A stretch of DNA of 64,000 nt from Nitrospirota bacterium (GTDB lineage: Bacteria > Nitrospirota > UBA9217), in the NCBI GenBank assembly GCA_963737155.1, contig CAVTRN010000002.1:672001-736000 (forward strand), given 5' to 3'. The notes beneath the pieces were generated by a model. It saw only the letters and a program-made list of their open reading frames with translations, was not told the DNA's origin and made no database searches. The translations under genes were made by a program, and so were the position numbers. This document shows positions 891-47,360 of this stretch, piece after piece. How positions within the stretch are numbered: the stretch's first letter is position 1; every line of letters starts with the position of its first letter.

Positions 891-1964
891 TTATCTTTTT
901 CGGAGCAGATATGCATGGGCCGAGAGTCCCGCTCCGAAAGCAACCATGATGCACCATTCTCCTGAAGCAACACCTTGCACCTCAAGCTCTTGCAGCACGA
1001 ACCAGACGGTGGGCGATGACATGTTCCCGTACTTGGAAAGCACAGCACGCGTAGCAGAAACTTGTTCCTCCGACAGTCCGGGCTCGTCTCGGACGGCGTT
1101 TATGATTTTTTCTCCGCCATTGTGGAGGGCCCAGTGTTTGATATCGTTTGGTTTAAGCGAGCGCGGAACGAGGAGGTCGGCAACGACCTGTGCCGTAGCC
1201 TTACGGACCATGTCAGGTAGTCTGACCGAAAGTTGATTGTAAAGCTGTCCGTTTTTGTGGACGTAGCGGATTAATTCGCGCTCTTCCGGCACATACCGCC
1301 TTGCCGAGGCGACAAGCTCATAGCCTTGCGGCCTCGTCCATAGCACGGCGGCAGCAGCACCGTCTCCGAAAAGCGCGTTCGAGAGCAGGAGGCTGAGATC
1401 GTCATCCATCTGGAAAGTAGCGGTACAAATCTCTACGGATACACTTACGATGGCCATACCTTCCCGCTGTTGTAAGAGCGACTCGGAGATTTCGAGGTTG
1501 GGAATCGCCCCGCCACAACCGCTTCCGACCAGGTCGTACGCACGTACGCTGCGCGGGAGGCCAAGCCGCTCGATCAGATATGTTGAAATGCCAGGGCATA
1601 TATAACCCGTACACGTGTTCACGACCAGACCGGCCACCTCACCCTTGCCCAAGCCGGACTTTGCCAGCGCTTTTTCGATCGCCAGCGAAGAAAGTTCCAA
1701 TGACCAGTGCGTAAAACGTGCGATGCGCGCATCGGGGGCCTCATTGACAAGATTTTCAACATCGTCGATGGCGAAGTTACGCCGTTTGATACTCTGATGA
1801 GAGAAGAGCGTGCGGATAACCGACATGCTCAGCGGATTTAACCTCCCCTGATAATGCTTGCGCGCGAGCCGCCCAAGTTCCGCCTGGTCAAGGGTACAAG
1901 GAGGAGTCGCAACAGCCAATGACGCAATATGCGCCCTTGACGCGTTCGCATGCTCATCCATCAT
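891..1964 (-). CDS. Type III polyketide synthase (chalcone/stilbene synthase-like)
   Basis: Cys-His-Asn triad motifs GSGCGGA, WALHNGG and YGNMSS; also NTCTG, EICT, LFGDGAAA and AFGAG. Confidence 0.92.
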   Translation of the reverse strand: MMDEHANASRAHIASLAVATPPCTLDQAELGRLARKHYQGRLNPLSMSVIRTLFSHQSIKRRNFAIDDVENLVNEAPDARIARFTHWSLELSSLAIEKALAKSGLGKGEVAGLVVNTCTGYICPGISTYLIERLGLPRSVRAYDLVGSGCGGAIPNLEISESLLQQREGMAIVSVSVEICTATFQMDDDLSLLLSNALFGDGAAAAVLWTRPQGYELVASARRYVPEERELIRYVHKNGQLYNQLSVRLPDMVRKATAQVVADLLVPRSLKPNDIKHWALHNGGEKIINAVRDEPGLSEEQVSATRAVLSKYGNMSSPTVWFVLQELEVQGVASGEWCIMVAFGAGLSAHAYLLRKR

Positions 1965-2025
1965 ATCGCATTCCTTTCCATGATTCTGATTGATCAGAGG
2001 GGGAGAGACCTGCCCTTGTATTGCC

Positions 2026-3507
2026 TTATATTCGCATCCCCACTGATTTGAGCCCCCTTCGAATAAAACGCGTATAACGCCAGAGCGGTGGTTTAAGCCT
2101 CAGCCAATGTCCCAAGCGGCTTATATGGGGAAGATAGGAAAATGACAGCGATTCGCCGTTCATGAAGTTCATATGGCCGTTCAGGGATTGTTTCACCCGC
2201 GCCATGATCCAATCAGCGTCAACATCGGGAGAAACATAGAAGAGTGGCGCAAGCATACTGCCGGCAGGAAGGGAAAGCACGCCCTGATTGCGTGCGATGG
2301 TTTCCAGTTCGGTCCCTGGATATATGCGGATGCCGATGTTAAACAAAGCGGCATCCTGAGGCCTTATGAACTTCTCCGCGAAGTGCAGTGTTTCTCGCAC
2401 AGTATCACGTGTTTCACCCGGGCCACCGAGCAGGAAAATCCAAAGGCATGGCAGATGGTTGCGTTTTACGACTTCTGCTGCTGCATGAACGTCTCTCGAG
2501 GTAAAGCCTTTTCGAAGCCTCTTCAGGATCGGGTCGGATGCGCTTTCCACCGTAAGCCCCATTCCCACGAAGCCTGCCTGTTCCATAGCAAAGAGCAGAC
2601 GACTATCGAATGATGCCGGGCTCAGTTCGATGCTCTGAAGGCGCGCGCGGTTCTTTGAGCGAATAAGCGACTCACATACCGCAAGGGCATGGTCGTAGGG
2701 AGCATTGAAAACGTTATCAACGAATTCGATGTCGGTTAACCCCGCTGATGCATAACGAAGCGTGGCCTCGGCCACGCTCGCGGGGTCGCATAGCCGGTAG
2801 TCGTCGCCTTCGATCTTTTGGTAGGTGCAGTAGACACACCGAAATCGGCATCCCTGTTTTGTCTGAAGAGGGATCGTCGACAAATAGGAATGATAGGTCT
2901 TCATATTAACCCACCGACTATAATCAGGCCCTGCACAGGAATGCGCAGGACCATCTGCAGGGGTATTTGCACGGTATTTTCCACCCTCCAGGGATGCGAC
3001 ACCTGGCAGACCCTGCCATGGTTCCTTGCGAGCCAGTTTCGCGACCAAAGGGGGAAATATGGCTTCACCGTCTCCTATTACCGCACAGGAAACGCCTGTT
3101 GCGCGCATGATCTCCTCTGGCATGATCATGAGCGAAGCGCCTCCTAGGACAAGGTACGCATTGTTCGCGAACATGCGGATAGCATCAATGAGAGGGATGA
3201 GATCAACGATAAAATTCCGGGGAGCTACCATATCGATGTTGTCAATGTTCCGAACAGAAAGTCCTATGACATCGAACTTCGCCCTGTCGAGCACGGATTT
3301 AAGAGCACGGAGGGGGTTGGCGGCAAACATGAGGTCGAGAAACGATACCCTGTGTCCGGCCCGTTCAGCGGCTTCCGCGATCATGCAGACACCTGAAGGA
3401 AGGACAGGCACGGGATGGGCATTCCGGTTTGTACTGATGAGGAGAATATTCATGCTGCCGACAGCCGCAGGGTTTCCGCTCGGTGTCTTGTTATCCCCTC
3501 TACTCAT
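2026..3507 (-). CDS. B12-binding domain radical SAM protein (lipid-biosynthesis-type)
   Basis: N-terminal ILLISTN...P.PV.P.G and GLSVRNIDN cobalamin-binding domain; CRFRCVYC radical SAM motif. Start overlaps the KS stop (alternative start 3453). Confidence 0.88.
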   Translation of the reverse strand: MSRGDNKTPSGNPAAVGSMNILLISTNRNAHPVPVLPSGVCMIAEAAERAGHRVSFLDLMFAANPLRALKSVLDRAKFDVIGLSVRNIDNIDMVAPRNFIVDLIPLIDAIRMFANNAYLVLGGASLMIMPEEIMRATGVSCAVIGDGEAIFPPLVAKLARKEPWQGLPGVASLEGGKYRANTPADGPAHSCAGPDYSRWVNMKTYHSYLSTIPLQTKQGCRFRCVYCTYQKIEGDDYRLCDPASVAEATLRYASAGLTDIEFVDNVFNAPYDHALAVCESLIRSKNRARLQSIELSPASFDSRLLFAMEQAGFVGMGLTVESASDPILKRLRKGFTSRDVHAAAEVVKRNHLPCLWIFLLGGPGETRDTVRETLHFAEKFIRPQDAALFNIGIRIYPGTELETIARNQGVLSLPAGSMLAPLFYVSPDVDADWIMARVKQSLNGHMNFMNGESLSFSYLPHISRLGHWLRLKPPLWRYTRFIRRGLKSVGMRI

Positions 3508-4732
3508 GTTTCTGCACGATCAGCACGGCGTTTGTTCCACCGAAGGCGAAAGAATTGGACATAGCCCTTCTCATATCAACTCCCGTTCTGGCTTTTCTGG
3601 GCACATAATCGAGATCGCATAGCGGGTCAGGCACCGCCAACGTTGCAGTAGGCGGTATAATCTGATTCTTAAGCGCGAGAACAGCAGCAACAAGCTCCAC
3701 GGCCCCGGCCGCTCCGAGGAGGTGTCCGTGCATGGACTTCGTGGAGCTGATTGGAATATCATAGGCCCGTGGGCCGAATACGTTCTTGATGGCCCGTGTT
3801 TCCACTTCATCATTGGCTATCGTGGCCGTTCCATGGGCGTTGATATAATCGATATGGCCAGGCCCCATCCTTGCCTCATCCAGGGCCGCCTGCATGGCAG
3901 ACGACTGGCCTACCATGGAGGGTTTCGTGATATGCTCTCCATCCGCGGAAGAACCGTAGCCAACTACCTCTCCGTAAATGCGGGCACCCCGCGTCATCGC
4001 CCGGTCCCATGATTCCAATACCAGGGCAGCAGCTCCCTCACCCAACACGAACCCTGTTCGGTCCTTGGAAAAAGGTCTGCAGGATGTCGATGGGTCTTCT
4101 GCTTCCAAGGCCAATGTCCCTATCGATTCCCAACTCATCATAATGCCGCAGGTAAGGAGCGATTCAGCGCCTCCGGCCAGCATGACATCGGTGTATCCGT
4201 GTTTGATCGATCGGAAGGCTTCTCCGATGGCGACTGATGAAGAGGAACATGCTGTGGAAAAGGTAAGACAGGGGCCTTTCAATCCATATTCGATGGAGAT
4301 GGCGGAAGCAGCAGCATTATTCATCACCATTACGATGGTGAGCGGATGCAGCCGCTTGACCTTGTGCTCAAAAAGCTGGACATAGGAGTCTTCAAGGGTT
4401 TTCGCTCCTCCCATACCTGTCCCAAGATAGACACCGGCACGCCTCTTGTTCTCCTCGGAAAGCTGTATCCCGGCGTCCTTCCAGGCCTGTGAGGCTGCGG
4501 CAAGGGCGAACTGGCTCACTCGGTCCAGCGTGCGGGCAATCTTTTTCGGGAAATGCTCCTCAACAATAAAATCCACCTCGGCGGCGATTCTTGTAGACAA
4601 CCGTTCCGAGAAGCACGAATGCATTCTCTTGATTCCCGATTTACCCGCTGCGATGCTGTCAAAAAATGTTTCACACGAATTCCCCAGCGGGGAAATAATG
4701 CCCATCCCTGTTATGGCTACCCGTCTCCTCAT
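3500..4732 (-). CDS. fabF: Beta-ketoacyl-ACP synthase II-type ketosynthase
   Basis: RRVAITGMG, TACSSS (catalytic Cys), NAHGTAT, KSMHGHLLGA and SNSFAFGGTN. Probably a cluster-dedicated paralog. Confidence 0.9.
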   Translation of the reverse strand: MRRRVAITGMGIISPLGNSCETFFDSIAAGKSGIKRMHSCFSERLSTRIAAEVDFIVEEHFPKKIARTLDRVSQFALAAASQAWKDAGIQLSEENKRRAGVYLGTGMGGAKTLEDSYVQLFEHKVKRLHPLTIVMVMNNAAASAISIEYGLKGPCLTFSTACSSSSVAIGEAFRSIKHGYTDVMLAGGAESLLTCGIMMSWESIGTLALEAEDPSTSCRPFSKDRTGFVLGEGAAALVLESWDRAMTRGARIYGEVVGYGSSADGEHITKPSMVGQSSAMQAALDEARMGPGHIDYINAHGTATIANDEVETRAIKNVFGPRAYDIPISSTKSMHGHLLGAAGAVELVAAVLALKNQIIPPTATLAVPDPLCDLDYVPRKARTGVDMRRAMSNSFAFGGTNAVLIVQKHE

Positions 4733-4748
4733 TTAGACGTCCTGGTGA

Positions 4749-5024
4749 TCATCTTGCCTTTTCTTGCTCGCGGAGCAAGCTTTCAATAACATTGATAATG
4801 TCCTGGATGGAATTAAGCGTAATTTCGCGATCGGGGATTTTAACATTGAATTCCTTTTCCAGGTCAAACAGAAATTCAATCTTGTCCAGCGAGTCGAGGC
4901 CTATGCTCTCGATTGTTGATTCCGGTTGGAGCATCTCGGCGGGAAAATCGTAGTTTTTTTGAAAAAGGCGTTTGACCCTTTCTAAGGTGCTCACCGGTTT
5001 CTCCCCGTCATGAGAAAATATCAA
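4749..5024 (-). CDS. Acyl carrier protein
   Basis: GLDSLD phosphopantetheine attachment motif; small acidic protein next to the KS. Confidence 0.9.
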   Translation of the reverse strand: MIFSHDGEKPVSTLERVKRLFQKNYDFPAEMLQPESTIESIGLDSLDKIEFLFDLEKEFNVKIPDREITLNSIQDIINVIESLLREQEKAR

Positions 5025-5041
5025 AAGCAGAGTTCAATGAG

Positions 5042-6286
5042 TCAGAATTTTAGTTGCGTTTTTTTAAGACCCCACATCTCACCGGAATACATGTCGCCGA
5101 ATGCGTCCTCGTAGAGCTTAAGAAGCTCGGCGCGGTATGCCTCGTCGATTGTAACTGCCTTCCTTGCATACGAAGCGCACCAGCCGCAGGTTCCGCAGTC
5201 GGTCGAACGGCAGTTCCTATCCTTGAAGCCGGGGATGAAACCGGCCAATTTCCCGTTGTCGATATGAACGGGATCTCCCTCGAGAGGTGCAAGCATTCCA
5301 CGCCTGATGGTGAGGTCCTTAAGCTTCATGAGCTTCGACAGCCGGACCGTCTGCGGCCTGAACATATACTTCCACTTGTTAAATGGCCCTCTTGAGAGGG
5401 ACGCATCGCTTTTTTCTTTGTAGCCGAAAGGCTGTATGAGATCAAGGAGGTTCCCGTCGTACCGCCCCTCGGAGTAGGCTTTTATTCTTCTCATCAATAC
5501 GGGCGTGGGTGCGCCCCGTTCCAATACCTTGAAAGAGTCATAACCCATATCGAGATAAAGACCCAGATCCTCGGGCCTGATGAACTCGGAGCGCAGGTAC
5601 TGCATCGGATCTTTCAGCTTATCGTAGGAGCATTTCAACACGCACCAGTCTATCATGAATCCCCGTGTCGGGTGCCCCGTCTGCGATGCATGGGAGAGAT
5701 TCACCATATGCTGGCCCGAGAGAGGACAGAAAAGCTGGCAGTTTGCATTTACGATGAGCTGCAGCTCTATATTGAGTTTCCTCCGGAGAGCTGCGAGCAG
5801 TTCGAAGTCGCGGTTGACGCTCAGCGACTCAAGCGTTATGCAGTCCGCTCCGCCTTCCTCCCAGAACCTGGCCTTGACAATGCTGTCGACGCGGGCATAT
5901 ACGCCCACACGGACCTTAAGCCGCGGATGGCGCTTCTTTATTATTGGCAACAAAAAGGGAAGCGATATCGTTACGGCACTCACCCCCGCGCCCTCGATGT
6001 ATTCTAAGAGTGTCTCAATCTTTCTCTGCCCCTGCCTGGTGTACTCGAGGTTGTTCATGCATGCAGGATTGAGGAGATAATTGAATCCTATGCCTTTCGA
6101 TCGAGCCGTCTGGACATGGAGCTCAAACCGTTTGCGCGAGAGCGGCGGCAGCGCAAAGGATGCCCTACCGCCGCCAACCGGGTCGCATGACAGCTTTCCA
6201 AAGACCTCTGTCACCGGATAAACCGAAATGGCATCAAGGAGGCCGTCATCGAAATTGGTCGCGACCGACAGTCCGAATTTCTTCAT
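5042..6286 (-). CDS. Peptidase U32 family Fe-S protein (UbiU/TrhP-like hydroxylase fold)
   Basis: Likely start ATG 6286 (MKKFGLSVATNFD), directly after the upstream stop. FNYLLN..C, NANCQLFCP, DWCVLKC, FIRPEDL..Y, FKVLER; C-terminal CxxxxCxxCxxC. Confidence 0.82.
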   Translation of the reverse strand: MKKFGLSVATNFDDGLLDAISVYPVTEVFGKLSCDPVGGGRASFALPPLSRKRFELHVQTARSKGIGFNYLLNPACMNNLEYTRQGQRKIETLLEYIEGAGVSAVTISLPFLLPIIKKRHPRLKVRVGVYARVDSIVKARFWEEGGADCITLESLSVNRDFELLAALRRKLNIELQLIVNANCQLFCPLSGQHMVNLSHASQTGHPTRGFMIDWCVLKCSYDKLKDPMQYLRSEFIRPEDLGLYLDMGYDSFKVLERGAPTPVLMRRIKAYSEGRYDGNLLDLIQPFGYKEKSDASLSRGPFNKWKYMFRPQTVRLSKLMKLKDLTIRRGMLAPLEGDPVHIDNGKLAGFIPGFKDRNCRSTDCGTCGWCASYARKAVTIDEAYRAELLKLYEDAFGDMYSGEMWGLKKTQLKF

Positions 6287-6287
6287 C

Positions 6288-7016
6288 TCAGCCCTTCCTC
6301 CCGGAGAGCACCATAAGCCAGAACGGTTCTGCTGCAACTTTGCAGCCGGTAAGACCCGCTTTTCCGGCCAGGGTCTCAAGCTCGGGAACCGTGAATGACC
6401 GGAGAACCGACAATGGCCCATCATGCCAGGTAATCCTATTCCTTGTAAAGAGCCTAGTAAGCATTGTGATGAGCGCCCATGCCACCCAGCTCCGTCTGAG
6501 ATCCAGGACAATATAACCGATGGCAGCTACTCTGCCTATTTCCTGCAGCAGCCTGAGCGTGGCCTCCTCATCGAAGTGGTGAAGAGTTTTGGCGCACAAT
6601 ACAACGTCGAAGCTTTCATTTTCGAACGGAAGCGAAAAGCAGTCGGCGACGGCAACAGTAATTTCAGGGTACCCCACAGTGAAAGCAGCTGCTTCGCGGA
6701 CTGCGATGGGGTTGTTATCAACGGCGGTTACGTTGATCCGAAGTCCCCTCTTGCGGGCCCATCTGACAATGGCGGCAGGAATATCGGCTGAGCCAGTCGC
6801 GATGTCCAGCACTCTGATCGATCTGGCTAGTGTTCCCGCATCAGCCTGTAAAAGGGACGAAAAGTGCTTGAGCGTCGTGCGATAATCGCCTAGAAAACGG
6901 TTGACTTTTCTTATGTCCGCAAGGCTTCCGGTATATTCGTGCAGGTTATCATTCTCAATGGGGAGGTCTATCAGCTCCGGGCTTCGCCTCCGCTCAGGCA
7001 ACAACGACATTATCAT
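6288..7016 (-). CDS. Class I SAM-dependent methyltransferase (type III PKS-associated family)
   Basis: VLDIATGSADIP SAM motif; E.ID...L..I..VNRFLG, LHHF, DLRRS and HDGPLSVLRSFT. Confidence 0.88.
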   Translation of the reverse strand: MIMSLLPERRRSPELIDLPIENDNLHEYTGSLADIRKVNRFLGDYRTTLKHFSSLLQADAGTLARSIRVLDIATGSADIPAAIVRWARKRGLRINVTAVDNNPIAVREAAAFTVGYPEITVAVADCFSLPFENESFDVVLCAKTLHHFDEEATLRLLQEIGRVAAIGYIVLDLRRSWVAWALITMLTRLFTRNRITWHDGPLSVLRSFTVPELETLAGKAGLTGCKVAAEPFWLMVLSGRKG

Positions 7017-7788
7017 CGAAAGATCTTTCTCTGGAGGGTAGGCGATGCGGGATTGGTTCCTTGAGAATCATAATAGTACTAATTATAGCATGTACAAATT
7101 GTGATTTTTTCAGATCAAGGGGGACCACATACTTTTTTATCCGCATGACAATCAGCTAAGATTTCCTCATGCTGATTCTTATGCAAGCAGCTTTCAAAAT
7201 GGTGATTCGGCGGCTGAAATTGGGTTTCCTGTCCGAGAAGACGTGTTTGACTGAACAGGCGAATCCTGCGGTAATTAAAAAAGCCATAGTTCTAGCACTT
7301 GGCGTCATATCCCGCAGGTAAGCCAATCCGGTGAAATCGCAACGAACCTGAGTTCTTTATGGACAGATGCTGCGGATTTGGGGTTAACGTGTATCAGGTG
7401 CAAGGAAAGGTGACTGAGATAATTCCCCCGGCTCAAGGATCTGTGCTGTTTGTCACAAGAAGACGGCAAGGATAGAATTTTCATCTGCTTTCGGTATGGT
7501 ATACTGAAAATTAGTTGGCGCTGCTCGACTCTTGCAAAAAAGTACAACTACATTTCCAAGAGTGAGCATGCTGGAAACTAGGCAAGAACGTCAGGAAGAA
7601 CGGCGTGATTCGACGATTGTCTGAATAATAATAACCGATTAACGAACAGGATGTTGCTTCAAGGGGAAACGCAGATGTGCGAAACCACGCGCTTAACCGC
7701 ATATAGCAAGTTAATGGGATATATAAAAGTGTTTATATGCGCCACGCGGTCGGGTTATATGAATTTAAAAACAGCAGAGGGGAACGAT

Positions 7789-8739
7789 ATGAAACGGATG
7801 AAAGCAATGCCAACGATTGTTGTGATATTTGTTGCTGCTTTTTCTCTTTTACCAGCGTTTGCTGGAGCTGCCAATAATTCAGATCTGCTCGTTGATGCGG
7901 GGTGGCTTGCCGGCAAGCCTAACGTGGTTATAGTGGATGTAAGGGCCAGCGATGCGTACCTGAAGGTGCACATTGCCGGTGCGATAAACATAGACGTGAA
8001 TGACCTCCAGACCAAACCCGATGCTATCATGTTTCCTGTCGCCCGGGAGGAGAAGATACTCGGGGAGAAAGGCCTTGATATAAACAGCAATGTTGTTTTG
8101 TACGGTGCCGGGAGGGAAATGGCATATCTGGAATTCTGGATGTTTGATTATCTGGGGATGACCAAGATCCATATCTTAAACGGCGGTCTAGAAGAATGGA
8201 AGGGGGAGCTTTCAACCGAAGAGGTAAAACTTCCGTCTACCGTATTCAAAGCAAAACCCGATCCGTCAAGATATGCCACAACTACCTATGTTCGCGCGCA
8301 CCTCAGGAAGCCGGATGTCGTACTTCTTGACGCCCGTACTGCCGGTGAATATCAGGGGACGGATGTGAGGTCATTACGGGGCGGGCATATCCCCGGAGCT
8401 ATAAACTTGAATTATGCGGAGAACTTCCAGAACGACACGACGAATCTCAAATCCATTGAAGAATTAAAAAAGATGTATGCAAAAATAGACCCCAAAAAGG
8501 AGGTAGTTACTTATTGCCAAACTGGAACCAGGGCGGCAAATTCCTATTTTGTACTGCGAGAACTGGGTTTTCCGAAGGTCAGGGTCTATGATGCATCATG
8601 GATTGAATGGGGAAGTAACTCTAGCCTTCCCGCCGATGATGTGAGCTACTTTAATTTTGTTTCCGTCTTGAACTCAATTAAAGAACTGCAAAGGGAAATA
8701 ACGGATCTCGAAGAAAAGCAGGCTGCGGGCGTGAAATAA
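7789..8739 (+). CDS. Exported tandem-domain rhodanese/sulfurtransferase
   Basis: RBS GAGGGG before ATG 7789; Sec-type signal peptide (..LLPAFAGA); HIAGA, GGHIPGA, active-site YCQTGTRA and YDASWIEW. Confidence 0.88.
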   Translation: MKRMKAMPTIVVIFVAAFSLLPAFAGAANNSDLLVDAGWLAGKPNVVIVDVRASDAYLKVHIAGAINIDVNDLQTKPDAIMFPVAREEKILGEKGLDINSNVVLYGAGREMAYLEFWMFDYLGMTKIHILNGGLEEWKGELSTEEVKLPSTVFKAKPDPSRYATTTYVRAHLRKPDVVLLDARTAGEYQGTDVRSLRGGHIPGAINLNYAENFQNDTTNLKSIEELKKMYAKIDPKKEVVTYCQTGTRAANSYFVLRELGFPKVRVYDASWIEWGSNSSLPADDVSYFNFVSVLNSIKELQREITDLEEKQAAGVK

Positions 8740-8812: not shown

Positions 8813-9616
8813 TTAATTTTTGCCTCCTGCAAGTTCTCCTTGTGTGGTTTTACGTGCGATGAGAAAGAGCCTTTTAAATGGATAGAGAATTCGCCCGTCG
8901 CTTTGAGGATGGTACTGTTCTTGAGAGGCAGTTAATACTGTCTGCTCGAATTCCCCCCTAGAATCATCGGTCGGCAGGCTCTCGAGAAAAGGTTTCATCG
9001 CGGTGCTCTTATACCACTCAACAAGATTTTGGTGGGATTTCAAAATGTGATAGTAAGTCGTTTCCCAAAGGGTGATGTCCTTCGTTAAGGAAACGAGCTG
9101 CTCATAATAATATGTGGCATTATGGTGCGTTATCAGCCCGTCGCAACCAGAGGTGAACGTACTCCATTTACTGTTCTGGGCAACTTTCAATATGATTTTG
9201 TATAAAGGCGATTCGTAATTAGCAGGCACCTGGATCGCCAGTATCCCGTTGTTCCTTACTATTTGGAACAATCGCGAAATTAACCTCGGGTGATCAGAGA
9301 TCCATTGTATAGCCGCATTGGAAAAAACAATATCATATGCCCGGTCAGTTTCCACTCTTGAAGCATCCCCTATCACCCATGTTTGACCAGGATAATCCGT
9401 GCGCGCTCGTTCTATCATCTTAACGGATTTGTCGAGGCCGACGATGTCGGCGTAAGGCCATCGCTTGCGCAGGACCTGGGTACTGTTTCCTGGGCCGCAG
9501 CCTATATCGATAATAGATTCGGGATCGGCCAGGGGAATTCGTAACACGAGGTCTATGGATGGCTGCGTTCTTTCTTGCTCAAACTGCAGGTACTGTTCTG
9601 GATCCCAATTGTGCAT
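8813..9616 (-). CDS. tam: Trans-aconitate 2-methyltransferase-like
   Basis: MHNWDPEQYLQFEQERTQP, DIGCGPGNST, FSNAAIQW and YPFKRLF. Start inferred at 9616. Confidence 0.85.
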   Translation of the reverse strand: MHNWDPEQYLQFEQERTQPSIDLVLRIPLADPESIIDIGCGPGNSTQVLRKRWPYADIVGLDKSVKMIERARTDYPGQTWVIGDASRVETDRAYDIVFSNAAIQWISDHPRLISRLFQIVRNNGILAIQVPANYESPLYKIILKVAQNSKWSTFTSGCDGLITHHNATYYYEQLVSLTKDITLWETTYYHILKSHQNLVEWYKSTAMKPFLESLPTDDSRGEFEQTVLTASQEQYHPQSDGRILYPFKRLFLIARKTTQGELAGGKN

Positions 9617-10078
9617 TGCAACCCTTCCGTTATTCCAGACAGCTCTGTCAATTGTACTGCAATCGCTGCAATCAAAAAAGTGATGAACACTGCAGGGCAA
9701 ACAGCATCGAAGGCGCCGGTTCTATAAAACAGGGGACTTGAAAATATTTTGTGATTAAATTGAGATTTTAAGCTCAGGGGATATATGTGTCAAATAATAT
9801 CTTCCAGAGAAGACCTCCGCCAATCGCCGGCTGAGGGAAAGGGTACCGCGGAGGAGGTGGACGGTTCTCGGTGTTCGGTCCGGGAGGTTCAAATTATAAA
9901 GCAATTGCGGAAACTGATCTTCCCAGGGATGGTGCCTAGGATTATGGTCGCTGTTGTTTCATGCATGACTCGATTGGGCAAGCATTGCGCAAACAATTCA
10001 AAATTTATGCTGCAATTTCACGAAGATTATGCTGTCGCGGGCTATAGGATGTGCTTTCCCGCCGTACACTGCCTCTTA

Positions 10079-37081: not shown

Positions 37082-38635
37082 ATGAAAAGACCCGTGACGC
37101 CCCGGGATTTCGATGCTCAGACCGCGGGGCCCCAGTACCTCGAAGACCTGGCTACCGGATACTGGTTTTCGGAGGCCCTGTTTACCGCCGTTGAAATGGA
37201 TCTCTTTTCTCTCATCGGGGCGGAAGGCGCAACCCTCGACGAGCTTTCCCGGGACGTCGGTGCAATCCCCCATGGCCTCAAACGGTTCCTGCATGCCCTG
37301 GAGAAAATGGGGCTGGTTATAAACGACGGCCCGCGGTATTTTAATACTAAACTTTCAGACAATTATCTGGTATCCGGCAAAGAGCTGTATCAGGGTGATT
37401 CCATCCTCTGGAGGAAATACCTGCATGCCGGATGGCAAGGCATGAGAGACTGTCTCAAGGAGGGCGGACGGGTTGATTATGCCAGCCAGGACAGTTTTTC
37501 GTTAAGGATCGGGCGCATCCAAAAATACATCCGCGCCATGGATGGTATCGCAAAAGTTAAGGCGCGGGAGATCGTCACGTTTTTTGCTGACCGCCCCGTG
37601 ACGGGAGAGATTCTCGATGTCGGCGCCGGCTCGGGCGCCATAGCCGCGGCCTTCCTTGATCGTTTTCCCCTGACGAGTGCGGTATTCATTGATCTTCCCG
37701 ACGTTCTTGGTTGCACCAGGGAATTTGTGGCGCGCCGGGGGCTTGACAAGAGGACGGGATATTGCCCGGCGAACATTCTCGAGCCTTGGCCGGTCAGAAA
37801 ACATGGCTTCGACCTTGTCATCCTTTCCAACATCCTTCACGCTTATTCCGAGCAGGAATTGCCGAATATCCTCCGGTCTGCCGTTGATTGCCTTACTGAA
37901 CGCGGCATCCTTTTGATCCATGATTTCTTTCTGGAGCACTTTCCGGAGAAGGCGGCGCTCAGTGATCTGAATATGTTCATCAATACGCATAACGGCAGGG
38001 TTTTTCCCGGGAAATCAGTCCAGGAACAGCTTCGCCATCTGGGACTTTTTTGTACAGACCTGGTCCCGCTCGGGACCGATACGGCCGTCCTCTTCGGCAC
38101 GCATGAGGAGGCCGGCCTCGGGTCTCTTCGTCTCGATGTGCTAGATCTCCTCATTTCGCGGATTCGTGCCCAAGGGTTCGGAAACGTGTATATGATGAGG
38201 ACGGAGGATATCCATATCCCGGACTGGACGAACATCCGGTGCCGGTTCGGATGCGAACGGTACGGCAATCTTCACTGTCCTCCCAACAGCCTGACTCCCA
38301 GTGAGACCAGGGAAATGGTAAAAGACTACAAGAAGGCACTGCTGCTTGAGGGGGAGCCACCGACGAGGGACTTCCAGGTGCGGGTCCTGCAAGCCGAGCG
38401 AGCGGCATTCAAGGCAGGCTTCCATAAAGCCTTCTCTTTCTGGGCGGGTCCGTGCTCTCTCTGTGAGTCCTGCGCCGAGAATGGATGCTGCACGAATACG
38501 GCGAATTCCAGGCCTTCCATGGAAGGAGCAGGAATTGACGTTTTTGTGACGGCAAGGAACGCGGGAGCGACCCTGAAAACCCTTGAGCAAAAAGACGAGC
38601 TCGTTAAATATTTCGCATTACTTCTTTTGGAGTGA
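37082..38635 (+). CDS. bzaC: BzaC-like methyltransferase with C-terminal DUF2284
   Basis: Dimerisation domain plus ILDVGAGSG O-methyltransferase domain; C-terminal CRFGC..YG..HCPPN...RPSMEGAGIDV; first gene after a B12 riboswitch, followed by two B12 radical SAM genes. Confidence 0.8.
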   Translation: MKRPVTPRDFDAQTAGPQYLEDLATGYWFSEALFTAVEMDLFSLIGAEGATLDELSRDVGAIPHGLKRFLHALEKMGLVINDGPRYFNTKLSDNYLVSGKELYQGDSILWRKYLHAGWQGMRDCLKEGGRVDYASQDSFSLRIGRIQKYIRAMDGIAKVKAREIVTFFADRPVTGEILDVGAGSGAIAAAFLDRFPLTSAVFIDLPDVLGCTREFVARRGLDKRTGYCPANILEPWPVRKHGFDLVILSNILHAYSEQELPNILRSAVDCLTERGILLIHDFFLEHFPEKAALSDLNMFINTHNGRVFPGKSVQEQLRHLGLFCTDLVPLGTDTAVLFGTHEEAGLGSLRLDVLDLLISRIRAQGFGNVYMMRTEDIHIPDWTNIRCRFGCERYGNLHCPPNSLTPSETREMVKDYKKALLLEGEPPTRDFQVRVLQAERAAFKAGFHKAFSFWAGPCSLCESCAENGCCTNTANSRPSMEGAGIDVFVTARNAGATLKTLEQKDELVKYFALLLLE

Positions 38636-39969
38636 ACTGCATGCGGGTTTTATTCATACAGACGCTTTCCGTCGAGGGAATATCGCAAGAGAAGGTTTAC
38701 CCCCTTGGTATTGTAACCTTGGCCGGTTGCCTTCAGGACCGCAGCTACGAGGTCAGCCTTCTCGATATGAACCTCGAGCCGGATCCCTTCGGCGCGGTAA
38801 AGAACAGACTCCTCAGTTTCAATCCCGATGTTGTGGGCCTGTCGCTGCGAAACATCGATCCGCTCGCAAACAAGACAAGTTCGCTTGTCCCGCCGTTCCT
38901 TGTTACGGCGCGGCTTGTCGCCTCCATCGTGCCCCAAGCATGGATTATCGCCGGTGGCGCCGGCTTTTCCCTGTTTCCCTTGCGGCTAATGCGCGAGGCG
39001 CCGGAAATTCATTACGGCGTTGTTGGAGAGGCGGAAACTTCCTTGCCGCTCCTCCTTGCATCTCTCGAAAATCCGCCTGCTATCAAAGGGATCTGCAGGC
39101 GCGAGCAAGGCGGAGTAATGGGCGGCTCTTCCTCGCAATGCCTGGACATGACTCACTATGTGCGGCCGACCAGGAGCCTGTTGGACCCCTCCCTCTATTC
39201 CGGCATAAATTCCTACGTGCCTGCCGTAGGGATCGAAACAAAGCGCGGCTGTCCGTTTCACTGCGCCTACTGCGTATATCCCAATTTGCAGGGGCGCATG
39301 CTTCGGTACCGCCTTCCGCGGGATGTAGTGGATGAAATGGAGTCGCTGAACAAGGAATACGGCATCGAGCGTTTTCATTTTACCGATCCGGTCATAAACT
39401 ATCCCGGTGACCATTTCGGGGACATCTGCCGTGATATTATCAGGAGAAAACTGAAACTTAAATGGGACGGCTTTATGAGAGAAGACTACTTCCACGAGAA
39501 GAATGTGGCCCTTTTCGAGAAAGCAGGTTGCGAGTGTTTCTCTTTTTCTCCGGACGGGCTTTGCCAGGAAGCCCTTGACGTTCTCGACAAAAGACTGAGC
39601 TCTAAGGATATTCTGAGGGCCGCCAAGCTCGCCGCGAGAACAGACGTCGTCAGCGTTTATCATTTCATGGTCAATGTTCCTGGAGAAACGGAAAAAACCT
39701 GCGAAAAAGGACTTCGTTTTCTGGAACGGATCTACGATCAGCACGACAGGAAGAAAAACCTTGGCACAGTCGTGCTCAATAATATTCGCATTCTGCCGGG
39801 AACGCCGATGGAAGAGATGGCCAGGGCCAAAAGCGTCATTCGGCCGGATACGGATCTTCTCTATCCGACCTACTATAACCCGCGGCCGTTCGAGGCGTTC
39901 AGGTATCGGCTGGAAGCTCTGCACCTCGCACGGAATGTGTTCATGTGGCAGGAAGTGAGGCGGCCATGA
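38632..39969 (+). CDS. bzaD: B12-binding radical SAM methylase, BzaD-like
   Basis: VYPLG, SLRNIDPL and RGCPFHCAYC; order bzaC-D-E. Confidence 0.75.
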   Translation: MNCMRVLFIQTLSVEGISQEKVYPLGIVTLAGCLQDRSYEVSLLDMNLEPDPFGAVKNRLLSFNPDVVGLSLRNIDPLANKTSSLVPPFLVTARLVASIVPQAWIIAGGAGFSLFPLRLMREAPEIHYGVVGEAETSLPLLLASLENPPAIKGICRREQGGVMGGSSSQCLDMTHYVRPTRSLLDPSLYSGINSYVPAVGIETKRGCPFHCAYCVYPNLQGRMLRYRLPRDVVDEMESLNKEYGIERFHFTDPVINYPGDHFGDICRDIIRRKLKLKWDGFMREDYFHEKNVALFEKAGCECFSFSPDGLCQEALDVLDKRLSSKDILRAAKLAARTDVVSVYHFMVNVPGETEKTCEKGLRFLERIYDQHDRKKNLGTVVLNNIRILPGTPMEEMARAKSVIRPDTDLLYPTYYNPRPFEAFRYRLEALHLARNVFMWQEVRRP

Positions 39970-41501
39970 AGATCCTTCTCCTGGAGCACCCGCGCAGTGT
40001 GGTTCCTGAGCGGTGCAACGATATTGCGAACACCCCGCTCTCCTCGTGCCTCCTGACCGGCTACGCCGCGGGCATGCTGAAGAGCAAAGGGCATGATGTC
40101 GAAATTGTGGAAGGATATCTCGACGGGCTTGCCTATGAAGAGATTGCCTCCCGGGTTCGCACCATGAAACCCGACATTCTTGGCGTCCACGTTGTCTACC
40201 ACTGGCAGAAGGATCATGCCCTCTTCGATTTCCTCGAAACCATGAAGAGGGAAGGACAGGTTTCTTCGATAACGGCGTATGGTTTTTATGCCACGATTGC
40301 CCATGAGAGCATTCTCAGAAGCTGTCAGGCTGTCGATGCCGTCATCGTCGGGGAACCTGAACGGACTTTTGCCGACTTTGCGGAGTCGGCCTCGCTGAGG
40401 AACTACACACCCTGCATCCCCGGCGTTGCAATCAGAAATGGTTCCGGGGGTATCAGGCTTCAAAAACAGAACGCCGTCACAGACCTCGATGACATTCCTT
40501 TCCCTGTCCGTACCGAGGCGATGTACCGCCTGCCTGAAGTGAACCTGCTGGGCAGCCGCGGGTGCTATGGTAACTGCACGTTCTGTTCAATCAATTCCCT
40601 TTACGGTGCCGCGGGTTCCTGGCGCGGCCGGAGCCCGAAGAACATTGTCCAGGAAATTGACGCGATCATCGCGGACCGGGGGGTGAGGGAATTCTATTTT
40701 ACCGATCCCAACTTCTTCGGTCCCGGACAGATGGGGCAGGAACGCGCACTGCTGCTTGCCTCTCTTCTAAAGCCGAAAAACATCCGCTTCGGTATCGAAG
40801 GAAGGGTCAACGACATTAACGACGAAACCGTCGGCGCACTGGTGGACGCCGGTCTCCGCCACATTCTCATCGGGCTCGAAAGCGGGAAAGATGAGTCTCT
40901 CAGACGAATGAATAAAATGACCACCGTGGCCCAGAACGAGAGGGCACTCCGGATCCTCCGCAGTCACGGCATCGAGCCGAACGTCGGGTTCATCATGTTC
41001 GAACCGGATTCCCTGCTGGAAGACGTTCGCATTAATTTCGATTTTCTGAAGCGGAACGACCTGTTGAAAAATCTGTCAGTTACCGCGAACGTGCTGTACC
41101 ATCATCAAATCGTTCTGGAAGGCACGCGGGCATATCATGATCTCAAAAGAGAAAACCGGCTCGAACTCCAGCGAACTTCCTATGAGGGAATTGCGCATCC
41201 GAAAAATCCGGAGGTCGCCAGTCTTGCCGATATCATGAGGAAAATAACCAACATCCTCTTTGGGCGGATGGACGGGATATGGAGCGGCAAGACGATCGAA
41301 CCGCCCGGCATGCAGAAAAGATACGCGGGGCTAAACCATGTTCTTGTCAATGTATTTGAAGACTGCCTGGAGGCAATGGAGTCAGGTGGGCGGTTGGACA
41401 AGGATCACATAGCGTCCCTGGTCGCGGCGACGGGAAACGTGATAGATGAGATCTTGACCTCGGTGGATCAGCGACCGGATAATCGCAATGAGGGGCCTTA
41501 A
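39966..41501 (+). CDS. bzaE: B12-binding radical SAM, BzaE-like
   Basis: NDIANTPLSSCL, RGCYGNCTFC and FYFTDPNFFG; ATG 39966 overlaps the bzaD stop. Confidence 0.72.
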   Translation: MKILLLEHPRSVVPERCNDIANTPLSSCLLTGYAAGMLKSKGHDVEIVEGYLDGLAYEEIASRVRTMKPDILGVHVVYHWQKDHALFDFLETMKREGQVSSITAYGFYATIAHESILRSCQAVDAVIVGEPERTFADFAESASLRNYTPCIPGVAIRNGSGGIRLQKQNAVTDLDDIPFPVRTEAMYRLPEVNLLGSRGCYGNCTFCSINSLYGAAGSWRGRSPKNIVQEIDAIIADRGVREFYFTDPNFFGPGQMGQERALLLASLLKPKNIRFGIEGRVNDINDETVGALVDAGLRHILIGLESGKDESLRRMNKMTTVAQNERALRILRSHGIEPNVGFIMFEPDSLLEDVRINFDFLKRNDLLKNLSVTANVLYHHQIVLEGTRAYHDLKRENRLELQRTSYEGIAHPKNPEVASLADIMRKITNILFGRMDGIWSGKTIEPPGMQKRYAGLNHVLVNVFEDCLEAMESGGRLDKDHIASLVAATGNVIDEILTSVDQRPDNRNEGP

Positions 41502-41506
41502 AGAAG

Positions 41507-41535
41507 TTGACTTCGCATGAGACGGGTGGTATACA
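41507..41535 (+). promoter_or_regulatory. Sigma70-type promoter of the cob operon
   Basis: TTGACT-17 bp-TATACA with extended -10 TG, just upstream of the riboswitch. Confidence 0.55.
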
Positions 41536-41562
41536 TGAATTACATTTAAAATATAAATAATA

Positions 41563-41718
41563 TTCAAGCTAAGGGAATCCCGTTATAGTCGGGAGCGGAG
41601 CCGCCGCTGTAATCCCAACCCCGTTTGAAAGGGGTATATCCTTTACTAAATGCGCCACTGGCCAATGATTGGGCTGGGAAGGCCGGTAAAGGTGGGAGAG
41701 CCAGAAGACCTGCTTGAA
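41563..41718 (+). promoter_or_regulatory. Cobalamin riboswitch (first of tandem pair)
   Basis: TTCAAGC/GCTTGAA P1; AAGGGAATCCCG, GCCGCCGCTGTA, GCCACTG, GGGAAGGC and GAGCCAGAAGACC. Confidence 0.9.
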
Positions 41719-41772
41719 CACATTCGCACAATCTTCGGAGCTAAGATCATGTGTGGATTATGGCGTTCACCT

Positions 41773-41809
41773 AATCCCCAGTCTTACATCGATGACTGGG
41801 GATTTTTTT
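41773..41809 (+). terminator. Intrinsic terminator (riboswitch expression platform)
   Basis: AATCCCCAGTC...GACTGGGGATT followed by a T run. Confidence 0.85.
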
Positions 41810-41882
41810 GTTCGATTGCACAAATGAATGCGTTGCAAGATGCGACCCGAAGTCAAGATCCAAGACAAAGTTCAAATGCTCC

Positions 41883-42024
41883 AACGGGAATGAGAAAGCG
41901 GAAAGGGGTGCGATTCCCCTGCTGTCGCGCAACTGTAATGGAAACGAAAGCCGACAACGCCACTGCCCTCACCGGGGCGGGAAGGCCGGCGAGTAGGATG
42001 TCCTGAGCCAGGAGACGTCTCGTT
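41883..42024 (+). promoter_or_regulatory. Cobalamin riboswitch (second of tandem pair, variant core)
   Basis: AAAGCGGAAAGGGGTGCGATTCCCC, GCAACTGTAA, GCCACTG, GGGAAGGC and GAGCCAGGAGAC; closing AACGGG/CTCGTT. Confidence 0.85.
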
Positions 42025-42244
42025 CAATACCCCCGCGTGGAAGGAGAAAAACATGGCAGAGAAAATACCGGTGTTGCCGTAGACGGCAAAAGAGTGCTAT
42101 TTGGCAGAGGAGCCGACCGCGATTCTCTCGATGAGGCAAAAAGATCCGCGGTAGGACGAACAAGGGAACAGCATGCCCCGTCATGCGCAGGCCAGATGTT
42201 GATCTCGGAATAGTGAACAGGGCGTCATTCAGGAGATAATTGCA

Positions 42245-43297
42245 TTGGAACATTTACGAAGCAGGATTTCACGGGTAAATAGCGCGCTCTCCGAGGAGGC
42301 GCAGAAAAGGCTTGATAACCTTACGAAGCCGCAGGGGAGTCTCGGCAGGCTCGAAGAGTTTGCCCGAAGGATTGTGGCTATCACCGGTGACAAAATGCCT
42401 GTGCTCGACAAGAAGGTTATCTTCACGTTTGCAGGAGATCACGGCATTGCAGACGAGGGCGTATCCGCATTTCCGAAAGAAGTGACCGTGCAAATGGTGT
42501 TCAATTTTCTGCGCGGCGGTGCGGGCATCAATGTGCTCGCGCGGCATGCGGGCGCGGACGTCGTCGTCATCGACATCGGCGTGGATCATGACTTCGGCGA
42601 GTTACCTGGCCTGGTTTCACGAAAAGTCATGCGCGGGACTGCGAATATGTGCAAAGGGCCGGCCATGTCCAGACAGCAGGCCGAGCAGTGCATCCAGGTG
42701 GGGATCGACCTCGCCCGCCAGTACGCGGAAAAAGGGTATCGCATTTTCGGAACTGGAGACATGGGGATCGGCAACACCACGCCATCCAGCGCGATTGCAT
42801 CAGTGCTCACGGGGACGCCCGTTAGGGATGTGACCGGCAAGGGCACGGGTATTACCGACGAATCGCTCCGGCGCAAGATCACTCTTATCGAGGGCTGCAT
42901 TGTAAAGAACAAGCCCGATCCGAAGGACCCCATCGACGTGCTGGCCAAGGTGGGCGGCGCGGAGATCGGAGGCATTGCCGGGCTCATCCTGGGGGCGGCC
43001 TCCGAGCGCATCCCCGTGGTCGTGGACGGGTTCATATCAACGGCCGGGGCGATGATCGCCTACGTTCTCGAGCCGAAAACTGCGGATTATCTGTTCGCCG
43101 GCCATTCCTCGGTCGAGATCGGCCAGAAGGCGATGCTAGGGAAAATGGGTCTTGTGCCAATCCTCGATTTGAATCTCAGACTTGGGGAAGGCACGGGAGC
43201 CGCGCTCGCGATGATGATTATCGAGGCGGGGACCAGGATCTACCGGGAGATGGCCACCTTCGGTGAAGCAGGCGTTTCGAACGAGATTATCAATTGA
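42245..43297 (+). CDS. cobT: Nicotinate-nucleotide:benzimidazole phosphoribosyltransferase
   Basis: [26 protein letters not shown] and RLGEGTGA. Confidence 0.95.
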
Positions 43298-43445
43298 CAT
43301 ATTCACAGTTTGAGGAAGTCGATCGGGGCCCGATTTCGATCTGACGCACGAAAATTCTTCTTGGATCTTCGGAGTGAGCTCGGACAAACGCACCGTCGAA
43401 GGGCAGACGCTGGTTGTCCTTCTAACAATCAAAAGGAGACAGTAC

Positions 43446-44756: not shown

Positions 44757-44826
44757 AGAGAATCACTGGGTTTCCCCGTCGTCTTATGTCGGGGAGGCCC
44801 GGTGAAGACGTTCACAAGGAGCAGCA

Positions 44827-46365: not shown

Positions 46366-47360
46366 TAGGCGCAATGGACTTGATACTAGCCTTCATCCTG
46401 GACCTCTGCATCGGGGACCCTCGGTGGGCGCCCCATCCGGTTAGGGTGATCGGGGCCGCCGCGAGCAGGGTGGAAGGCTTCTGGAGAAAATTCTGCCACA
46501 CCCCGTTGGGAGAGAGATGGGGAGGGGTGCTGCTCGTCCTGTCCATCGTCCTGCCGGTGTACATCCTCACTGACTTCGTCGTGATAGCGGTCAGCAGGAT
46601 CTCCATGCAACTATCCGCCGTCATCGGGACTGTCGTGCTCGTGTATCTTATCGCTACGACGATTGCTACACGTGATTTGATCCGATCCGCGCGGCTCGTG
46701 ATCGCAGCGATAAGGGATGAGGAGCTTGAAGCAGCTAGACGTCATGTAAGCATGATCGTGGGGCGCGATACCCATGATCTCTCTGAGAAAGCAGTCCTCA
46801 AAGCCACGATCGAAACCCTGGCAGAGAGTCTTTCAGACGGCATTGTAGCGCCGCTCTTTTACCTGGCACTTGGGGGACTTCCCCTGGCCATGGCATATAA
46901 AGCCGTTAACACACTCGATTCTATGGTGGGATATAAGAATGAACGGTACCGGTATTTCGGTTGGGCGGCGGCGAGGCTAGACGATGTCGCGAATTATGCG
47001 CCCGCCCGCATTACTGGACTGCTTATCGTGGTTGCTTCCTTTCTGGTGTCCCTGGTAAAGGATGGGGCGGCCGCAAAGGCAGTGGTCGGCCGGTCGCTTT
47101 CCGTGATGCTCAGGGACGGAAGAAAGCATCCAAGCCCGAATAGCGGGATTCCCGAGGCTGCCATGGCGGGGGCGTTAGGAATCCAGCTCGGAGGACCGTC
47201 CACCTACGGAGGCGTGCTGGTCGAAAAGCCCCGGATCGGGGATGGGAGAACGGATGATTATCTTGCTGTTTCCCTGCGGGCCGTTACTGTAGTCTACGTA
47301 ACGTCGGTCCTGGCCCTGGCTTTGGCTGCCTCGCTCCTTGCTCTGAGGAGAACGTCATGA
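46362..47360 (+). CDS. cbiB: Adenosylcobinamide-phosphate synthase
   Basis: GDP..HPV, IVGRDT, NTLDSMVGY and HPSPNSG. Confidence 0.95.
   Translation: MIGAMDLILAFILDLCIGDPRWAPHPVRVIGAAASRVEGFWRKFCHTPLGERWGGVLLVLSIVLPVYILTDFVVIAVSRISMQLSAVIGTVVLVYLIATTIATRDLIRSARLVIAAIRDEELEAARRHVSMIVGRDTHDLSEKAVLKATIETLAESLSDGIVAPLFYLALGGLPLAMAYKAVNTLDSMVGYKNERYRYFGWAAARLDDVANYAPARITGLLIVVASFLVSLVKDGAAAKAVVGRSLSVMLRDGRKHPSPNSGIPEAAMAGALGIQLGGPSTYGGVLVEKPRIGDGRTDDYLAVSLRAVTVVYVTSVLALALAASLLALRRTS

Follow-up and report, generated by a model that had tools for sequence, protein, structure and literature searches.

A cluster of six co-directional genes

We analyzed a 64,000-nucleotide (nt) stretch of DNA, referred to here as the window, from Nitrospirota bacterium GCA_963737155.1 (contig CAVTRN010000002.1, positions 672,001-736,000), and within it an operon at window positions 891-7016 that combines a type III polyketide synthase (T3PKS) with a protein resembling the U32 superfamily. 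Six minus-strand genes fill this interval. The first encodes a class I S-adenosylmethionine (SAM) methyltransferase (MT; 6288-7016, 242 amino acids (aa); PF13649, 54 bits) with the SAM motif LDIATGSAD at residue 70, and it is followed by the gene for the U32-like protein (5042-6286, 414 aa; PF01136, 26.3 bits with a cut-off of 22.4). The next two genes encode an acyl carrier protein (ACP; 4749-5024, 91 aa; PF00550, 43.3 bits), with Ser45 in a DSLD motif, and a FabF-type β-ketoacyl-ACP synthase (KS; 3500-4732, 410 aa; TIGR03150, 497.1 bits with a cut-off of 493.75), with the residues C162, H300 and H337. The operon ends with a B12-binding radical SAM protein (rSAM; 2026-3507, 493 aa; PF02310, 46.1 bits; PF04055, 60.7 bits), which carries the motif C220-x3-C224-x2-C227, and the T3PKS (891-1964, 357 aa; PF02797, 67.3 bits; PF00195, 49.2 bits), with the residues C150, H281 and N314. 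From MT to T3PKS the genes are separated by 1, 17 and 16 nt, an 8-nt overlap and 61 nt.

The original prediction for this locus described six tightly packed minus-strand genes with intact catalytic motifs. The packing is confirmed by the open reading frames (ORFs), the domain scores and the spacing, which never exceeds 61 nt. The statement on motifs stands for the ACP, KS, rSAM and T3PKS, whose residues are in place, and goes too far for the U32-like protein, which belongs to a remote clade with an altered cysteine pattern. The ORF-list start of the U32-like gene (6511) falls inside the MT gene. We place the start at the ATG at 6286, 1 nt past the MT stop, because a database entry has exactly the resulting 414-aa sequence and every homologue aligns with it from end to end.

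A scan for promoter consensus sequences returned 12 sites in the region (6.1 ± 2.7 in shuffles), one of which lies about 50 nt 5′ of the MT start (7067-7096, minus strand; TGTACA-18-TATGAT, 9 of 12 matches); this site comes from a consensus scan only and is not evidence of function. A terminator scan of the region gave no excess of sites over shuffles.

A remote clade of the U32 superfamily

The PF01136 score of the U32-like protein is a marginal pass, other members of its clade score 35-53 bits, and an NCBIfam search with the protein returned no match. So low a score is compatible with genuine U32 membership, since the functional Escherichia coli protein UbiV reaches just 38.3 bits on the same model (UbiU, 228; TrhP, 298; RlhA, 255.6). 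A family profile built from 88 sequences matches the U32 structure 5D88 (E = 1.2e-19), and the same structure is the top Foldseek match (E = 1e-11, target-normalized TM = 0.75) of an AlphaFold2 model of the protein (pLDDT 94.4, pTM 0.93). The profile match, the Foldseek match and the similarly low Pfam score of UbiV confirm, at the level of sequence and predicted structure, a real yet remote and deeply divergent U32 member with a TIM-barrel fold.

The protein belongs to neither the UbiU/UbiV nor the TrhP/RlhA subfamily, as judged by domains, BLASTP and a quick tree. The Peptidase_U32_C and DUF3656 domains, both detected in the E. coli proteins, are absent from the U32-like protein at E values up to 10. 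UbiU, TrhP and RlhA match one another at E = 1e-32 to 1e-43. In the quick tree, whose root was not placed, the U32-like protein and its orthologues form a clade (100% SH-aLRT), UbiU, TrhP and RlhA sit on their own branch of length 4.85, and UbiV sits on a branch of about 9.5. The original prediction hinged on the protein not grouping with the tRNA and rRNA hydroxylases; it lies outside TrhP and RlhA, and also outside UbiU and UbiV.

A segment of the protein, C183-x3-C187-PLSGQH193...SHA...RG...C215-x3-C219, aligns with the Cys-rich Fe-S stretch of RlhA, C..SGQC..SHA..RGDC-x3-C. C187 and C219 are invariant in the 88 sequences, 90% or more of which also retain C183 and H193, and the full set of invariant or near-invariant positions comprises Cys183, Cys187, Cys219, Cys359, Cys364, Cys367, Cys370 and His193; nine cysteines are invariant among orthologues. 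The gene is the sole PF01136 match in the 4.84-Mb genome. The clade is large: among representatives of clusters at 50% identity, 1629 match at E ≤ 0.001 and 436 at E ≤ 1e-30, and a search of the ESM Atlas yields only generic "U32 family peptidase" clusters.

Residues and families of the partner enzymes

The T3PKS, whose two Chal_sti_synt domains pass their thresholds, has stilbene and chalcone synthases (109 bits) and PKS18 (103 bits) as its closest solved structures. Its residues Cys150, His281 and Asn314 line up with the stilbene/chalcone synthase triad, and it scores 167 bits on the DpgA model versus 79 bits on FabH models, in keeping with a type III PKS. It is the only type III PKS of the genome.

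The rSAM has the layout of class B enzymes, with an N-terminal B12-binding domain and a CxxxCxxC radical SAM core, and is a probable C-methyltransferase. The family model on which it scores highest is TIGR04072 ("lipid biosynthesis B12-binding/radical SAM protein"), of which it is not a member, scoring 293.3 bits under a cut-off of 360; the second best is BzaD (166 bits), and its identity to the BzaD encoded in the same window is only 28%. The KS passes the TIGR03150 equivalog cut-off, has the Cys-His-His triad C162/H300/H337 of FabF enzymes and is a second FabF copy, as a housekeeping FabF encoded elsewhere in the genome scores 660 bits. The MT reaches 36.7 bits on the UbiE-type model PF01209 and 147 bits on NF004851, under the cut-off of 243 for that family; it is probably an O-methyltransferase acting on a newly made ring hydroxyl.

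The gene set is modular

We examined conservation in 40 U32-anchored loci from species-representative genomes and in 80 metagenome loci. MT lies directly upstream of the U32-like gene in 32 of the 39 genome loci with enough sequence (L018 included). Among the 38 loci counted for T3PKS and KS, 25 have an orthologous T3PKS within 7 kb of the U32-like gene, and 32 have a T3PKS or a KS nearby. Of the 60 MT-anchored metagenome loci with enough sequence, 40 carry a U32-like gene no more than 1.5 kb away. The complete six-gene order is present in 4 of the 40 genome loci (L004, L005, L007 and L009), all close relatives, and in 3 of the 80 metagenome loci (L104, L105 and L106). As the same order recurs in related loci and its sub-modules recur far more widely, the six-gene arrangement is not a product of chance.

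Loci of Geomonas, Citrifermentans and Geobacter carry rSAM, a secreted 283-aa protein, MT, U32 and T3PKS, with a second rSAM gene converging on them; ACP and KS are missing from loci of this Geobacterales type. A sample of 301 genomes from the window's phylum contained a U32-like match in 26 and a T3PKS in 43. Within the window's own family (63 genomes), 8 genomes have the U32-like gene and 37 the T3PKS, and all eight U32 genomes carry a T3PKS. We also read 20 T3PKS loci of this family that are free of U32. The rSAM gene stands immediately upstream of the T3PKS gene in every one (20/20), ACP and KS accompany the pair in three, and neither MT nor U32 does so in any. Apart from these three loci, ACP was seen only in loci of the window's type.

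From these differing occurrences, the set is modular, with an rSAM-T3PKS core, an MT-U32 add-on and an optional ACP-KS pair. Two elements of the original prediction are not supported. The six-gene set is not a widely conserved unit, being confined to close Nitrospirota relatives, and ACP, KS and rSAM do not form one starter module, as the rSAM goes with the T3PKS in 20/20 loci and ACP and KS do so in only 3/20.

Four loci, L003 (genome G209), L010, L034 and L008 (Holophagales/Acidobacteriota), encode close U32-like orthologues (77-85% identical) with neither T3PKS nor rSAM near. In G209 the rSAM-T3PKS pair, together with ACP and KS, sits on a contig other than that of U32. A conserved protein of about 500 aa lacking any Pfam domain follows U32 in L010 and L008.

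In 9 of the 20 U32-free loci (among L058, L061, L067-L069, L071-L073 and L076), the rSAM-T3PKS pair divergently adjoins SCO1 and a cytochrome c oxidase operon, and in 10 of the 20 a DUF5714 zinc-ribbon gene follows the T3PKS gene. The window's genome has a DUF5714 homologue (62% identical) beside COX1 (C2:2507983-2508741). We rejected DUF5714 as a cluster member, since in this genome it remains with the cytochrome oxidase genes, at a distance of 1.8 Mb from the operon. Because DUF5714 stays beside COX1, the rSAM-T3PKS pair seems either to have moved away from the oxidase site or never to have reached it.

U32 and a flavin monooxygenase exclude each other beside the T3PKS

We searched 151 genomes of the order containing Citrifermentans bremense R1. 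The U32-like gene is present in 24 of them, the orthologous T3PKS in 29, and an orthologue of a flavin adenine dinucleotide (FAD) monooxygenase in 5. The 29 T3PKS genomes divide into 23 with the U32-like gene, 5 with the FAD monooxygenase, 1 with neither and none with both. U32 and T3PKS occur together in 23 of the 24 U32 genomes of the order, always within about 3 kb, and all five FAD genomes carry the T3PKS and are U32-free. The mutual exclusivity anticipated by the original prediction is thus found in this order (23 versus 5, 0 both, n = 29).

Six genomes of the order have a T3PKS without U32. We read five of these loci and found a FAD protein of about 400 aa in two (L172 and L173), where the gene order is FAD monooxygenase, a second methyltransferase (MT′), rSAM and T3PKS. 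Among solved structures, the FAD protein comes closest to rifampin monooxygenase (E = 6e-39), to the polyketide oxygenases PgaE and CabE and to p-hydroxybenzoate hydroxylase, and on the basis of these relatives we assign it as a class-A flavoprotein aromatic hydroxylase. MT′ accompanies both the FAD enzyme and the U32-like protein, as its orthologues (72-75% identical) go with U32 in L020 and L031. Across about 170 loci the FAD gene is confined to L172 and L173, both of them free of U32. A homology search found no FAD monooxygenase homologue in the window or in its genome. The proposed replacement of an O2-dependent flavin hydroxylase by the U32-like protein is well supported by comparative genomics, through the mutual exclusivity, the equivalent place of the FAD gene in the operon and an MT-U32-T3PKS order that matches the hierridin operon described below.

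In one genome (G350:C60:165490-166682) the FAD monooxygenase orthologue is broken into two pieces that overlap (50-52% identical) and lies some 26 kb away from the T3PKS gene. This split gene may be a decaying copy.

Other contexts of the U32-like clade

Members of the clade are also found in further polyketide-type architectures. Another Nitrospirota family has the order MT, U32, SRPBCC polyketide cyclase, KS. In Nitrospirota family f3 (L077, L078, L079 and L085), a 468-aa U32-like paralogue lies in a type II PKS-like cluster with PadR, a 174-aa protein, an aldehyde ferredoxin oxidoreductase (AFOR), an ApbA reductase, two KS, an ACP and a cyclase. Five metagenome loci (L131, L142, L154, L155 and L158) encode a secreted protein and an MT, and then a convergent run that begins with a U32-like gene (49% identical) and continues with a UbiE/COQ5-type MT, a 193-aa unknown protein, an MMPL lipid exporter, a distant T3PKS (28% identical) and a YceI-like lipid-binding protein. 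The MMPL exporter and the YceI-like protein suggest that the product of this cluster type is exported.

A protein of about 285 aa, whose N-terminus resembles a signal peptide and which matches no Pfam domain, is encoded directly 5′ of MT at L039:8416-9267 and L131:608-1471. The two copies, which come from both Geobacterales-type architectures, are 70% identical, and the window's genome has no homologue.

Two fusions involve the clade. P0169 (628 aa, 7 contigs) joins a U32-like domain to a class I methyltransferase. On the strength of this fusion, the adjacency in 32/39 genome loci and the proximity in 40/60 MT-anchored loci, MT and U32 form a unit. P0168 (924 aa), the only fusion among proteins longer than 725 aa, carries its U32-like domain together with a chorismate-binding domain and a CM_2 chorismate mutase; it may link the clade to prephenate or salicylate-type chemistry.

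The host genome and the neighbors of the operon

The nearest records to this genome are uncultured soil Nitrospirota. The genome encodes DsrA (566 bits, above cut-off), which fits a largely anoxic life, and a chorismate mutase. On the plus strand of the same window (37082-51600) lies a cluster for the complete anaerobic cobalamin pathway, lower-ligand (bza) genes included. It includes a BzaC-like MT (37082-38635), BzaD (38632-39969; 665 bits with a cut-off of 450) and a third B12-binding rSAM, possibly BzaE (39945-41501), all on the plus strand, together with CobT, ThiC/BzaB-like, CobQ, CbiB, CobD and CobB genes and a CbiK/CbiC fusion. Given this cluster, the organism can supply B12 to its many B12-dependent rSAM enzymes. 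The gene at 38632-39969 had been a candidate for a second "ladderane-type" rSAM in the window; its score identifies it as BzaD and rules this out.

The divergent neighbor of the operon, a double-rhodanese sulfurtransferase (7651-8739, plus strand), has no homologue in 40 related loci (tblastn) and was rejected as a cluster member; its adjacency is probably a coincidence. Beyond it lies a homologue of Tam-like trans-aconitate 2-methyltransferase (8813-9700, minus strand; NF002463, 259.6 bits with a cut-off of 297), which is not conserved beside the cluster.

Comparison with characterized systems

In Streptomyces griseus, srsABC pairs a T3PKS with a methyltransferase and a hydroxylase to make methoxylated alkylresorcinols and alkylquinones. 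The ring C-methyl of the Srs products comes from a methylmalonyl extender, and the hydroxylases of the Srs and polyketide quinone (PkQ) pathways require O2. The operon described here resembles the srsABC and PkQ systems in having a T3PKS that would work with a methyltransferase and a hydroxylase, and differs from srsABC in that the B12 rSAM is the likely, predicted source of a ring C-methyl. PkQ, encoded by clusters in Mycobacterium and Streptomyces, is presented in the available part of PMC9927152 as an alternative electron carrier.

The closest match in layout is hidABC, the hierridin B operon of picocyanobacteria, with the order MT, FAD oxidoreductase and T3PKS (PMC10896814, available part). 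The same source reports this combination of MT, FAD-dependent oxidoreductase and T3PKS as an operon for 58 of 96 planctomycetal T3PKS genes, and states that the hid and planctomycetal operons yield hydroxylated, O-methylated alkylresorcinols. Set against such hid- and srs-type systems, the window has MT-U32-(ACP-KS-rSAM)-T3PKS, again one operon with an MT, a hydroxylase slot and a T3PKS, and the Geomonas and Citrifermentans relatives share the order of the three as reported for hidABC. Two differences stand out. A U32-like, putative Fe-S protein sits in the hydroxylase slot where hid has a FAD enzyme, the likeness being one of gene order, and one or two B12 rSAM genes are added, with ACP, KS and rSAM lying between U32 and the T3PKS in the window.

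UbiU and UbiV (which act with UbiT), TrhP and RlhA share with the U32-like protein a common fold family, and its conserved Cys-rich stretch is homologous to the Fe-S motif of U32 proteins. These proteins have been tied genetically to O2-independent hydroxylation with prephenate as the O donor, according to the accessible portions of PMC10990095 and PMC5727448. Ubiquinone synthesis offers a further parallel in the hydroxylation and subsequent O-methylation of an aromatic lipid head group. The present protein differs from UbiU/UbiV in being encoded by a single gene rather than a pair, and from TrhP/RlhA in its domain content (no Peptidase_U32_C or DUF3656), in its position outside all four E. 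coli subfamilies and in the His that takes the place of RlhA Cys176.

Two systems resemble the remainder of the operon. The ladderane and polyunsaturated fatty acid (PUFA) clusters of Rattray et al. 2009, which combine type II fatty acid synthesis (FASII) genes with rSAM genes (PMC2649909, available part), likewise have a B12 rSAM beside an ACP and a FabF paralogue. They differ in that the T3PKS, the constant partner of the rSAM here, is not found in the organisms of that paper as far as its available part extends; moreover, no phytoene-desaturase-like genes occur here, and our rSAM stays under the TIGR04072 cut-off. BzaC and BzaD provide a precedent for an O-methyltransferase paired with a B12 rSAM, and BzaD is predicted to methylate an sp2 ring carbon adjoining a methoxy group (PMC12931638, available part). 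Their substrate is a benzimidazole and not a polyketide, and the rSAM of the operon is, as noted, only distantly similar to BzaD (28%).

A literature search, thin on subscription journals, found no paper connecting U32 proteins with type III PKS or polyketides. The locus thus appears to offer a new functional context for the U32 superfamily, in an otherwise known kind of operon.

A proposed O2-independent pathway and its alternatives

We propose, with a probability of roughly 60%, that this one operon directs the synthesis of a tailored phenolic lipid, alkylresorcinol or alkyl-hydroquinone in type, by a route that needs no O2. The extra FabF-type KS and the ACP would provide or lengthen a fatty acyl starter, which the T3PKS, judging by its family, would join with malonyl units and cyclize to a resorcinol-type ring. 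The B12 rSAM would place a C-methyl on the ring or the chain. Hydroxylation of the ring without O2 would fall to the U32-like protein, as its displacement of the flavin enzyme and its family suggest, with prephenate the probable O donor as for UbiU/UbiV, and the MT would then O-methylate the fresh hydroxyl. The observations behind this proposal are the genes present, their catalytic residues, the fold, the modular co-conservation and the exclusivity of U32 and FAD monooxygenase. In addition, the chorismate mutase and the cobalamin genes of this genome would provide precursor and cofactor.

Several observations count against it. The clade is very distant from the characterized U32 proteins: BLASTP gives E = 0.012 to TrhP and E = 0.029 to RlhA, with no significant match to UbiU or UbiV. 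His193 occupies the position aligned with RlhA Cys176, which together with Cys169 is essential in RlhA (PMC5727448, available part), and an extra C-terminal motif, C359-x4-C364-x2-C367-x2-C370, is conserved throughout the clade. In vitro hydroxylation has not yet been demonstrated for any U32 protein, according to the available part of PMC10990095. Possibly the five FAD genomes all belong to a single related group, and related genomes are not independent, so that the displacement may amount to one or two events. Most T3PKS genomes of the window's family lack both U32 and MT, and none of the 20 U32-free loci has a FAD gene adjoining the T3PKS gene; from these loci, hydroxylation is dispensable for the product of the core pair. 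The chorismate mutase fusion P0168 is one sequence on a single 6.5-kb contig. Finally, haem-copper oxidases are encoded in the genome, so O2 is not always absent from the life of this organism.

The distance of the clade, the altered cysteine pattern with its additional four-Cys motif and the lack of any known in vitro hydroxylase activity of a U32 protein (PMC10990095, available part) would also suit a U32-like protein that tailors the polyketide without being a hydroxylase, whether as a reductase, a dehydratase, an alkylresorcylic acid decarboxylase or an electron-transfer partner, with the FAD enzyme performing a different step. We regard this as unlikely. Such a role sits poorly with the division of 29 T3PKS genomes into 23 with U32 and 5 with a class-A hydroxylase, none with both, and with an MT′ that goes with either enzyme; the constant adjoining methyltransferase fits hydroxylation followed by O-methylation, and U32 is no obligate partner of the rSAM, given that rSAM-T3PKS pairs are U32-free in 20/20 loci and the L131-type clusters have U32 without rSAM. 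The annotation of the protein as a collagenase-type peptidase, under the source names "collagenase-like PrtC family protease" and "U32 family peptidase", has next to no likelihood of being right. These names are automatic, there is neither a signal peptide nor a peptidase context, the gene nearly overlaps its neighbors in a biosynthetic operon, and nine cysteines are invariant among orthologues. Moreover, every characterized non-collagenase U32 protein covered in the available parts of PMC10990095 and PMC5727448 is connected to hydroxylation.

Two other explanations concern the operon as a whole, and both appear improbable. In one, the cluster modifies fatty acids, like the ladderane and PUFA candidates of anammox bacteria and deltaproteobacteria, and the T3PKS is a FabH-like initiator that forms no aromatic ring. 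The ACP and FabF in the cluster, the rSAM's best family (TIGR04072, 293 bits), the 79-bit match of the T3PKS to FabH models and the rSAM/FASII clusters reported in Geobacter, Pelobacter and Desulfotalea (Rattray et al. 2009, PMC2649909, available part) all point that way. However, the TIGR04072 score is under the 360-bit cut-off, the T3PKS scores better on the chalcone/stilbene side (DpgA, 167 versus FabH, 79 bits; stilbene synthase, 109), ACP and KS are missing from 17 of the 20 loci that keep rSAM-T3PKS and from the Geomonas type, and sister clusters encode an aromatic-ring hydroxylase. Slightly less probable again is a local mosaic of independent modules (MT-U32, ACP-KS and rSAM-T3PKS) that share no product. 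The modules do occur apart: rSAM-T3PKS without U32 in 20/20 loci, MT without a U32-like gene within 1.5 kb downstream in 20/60, U32 without a PKS in the Holophagales loci, and U32 and PKS on separate contigs in G209. Against a mosaic stand the co-occurrence of U32 and T3PKS in 23 of 24 U32 genomes of one order within about 3 kb, the T3PKS in all eight U32 genomes of the window's family, the single strand and the gaps of at most 61 nt or overlaps in the window, and three independent architectures that join the clade to polyketide genes.

Implications for U32 chemistry and anaerobic lipids

O2-independent hydroxylation by U32 proteins has so far been linked only to ubiquinone, tRNA and rRNA, and its chemistry is unproven in vitro. 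If our proposal of an O2-independent phenolic lipid pathway is correct, U32 chemistry would extend to polyketide and lipid natural products and would account for oxygenated aromatic lipids in strict anaerobes. Cultured Geomonas and Citrifermentans strains allow direct testing of the exchange of U32 for flavin enzymes, and a small-molecule assay with an alkylresorcinol substrate, these cultured strains and the FAD enzyme as a built-in control could establish how the whole family works. A quinone, if that is the product, would represent a new anaerobic electron carrier.

A broader and more tentative idea, possible though doubtful at present, is that the clade (436 clusters at 50% identity, E ≤ 1e-30) plays in the polyketide metabolism of anaerobes the part that flavin aromatic hydroxylases otherwise play. 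Together with B12 rSAM C-methylases and O-methyltransferases, it would give sulfate and iron reducers such as these Nitrospirota, Geomonas and Citrifermentans fully substituted methoxy-methyl-alkyl-hydroquinones without O2, polyketide quinones that would serve as alternative membrane electron carriers and that, in clusters with MMPL, YceI and secreted partners, might leave the cell as redox lipids.

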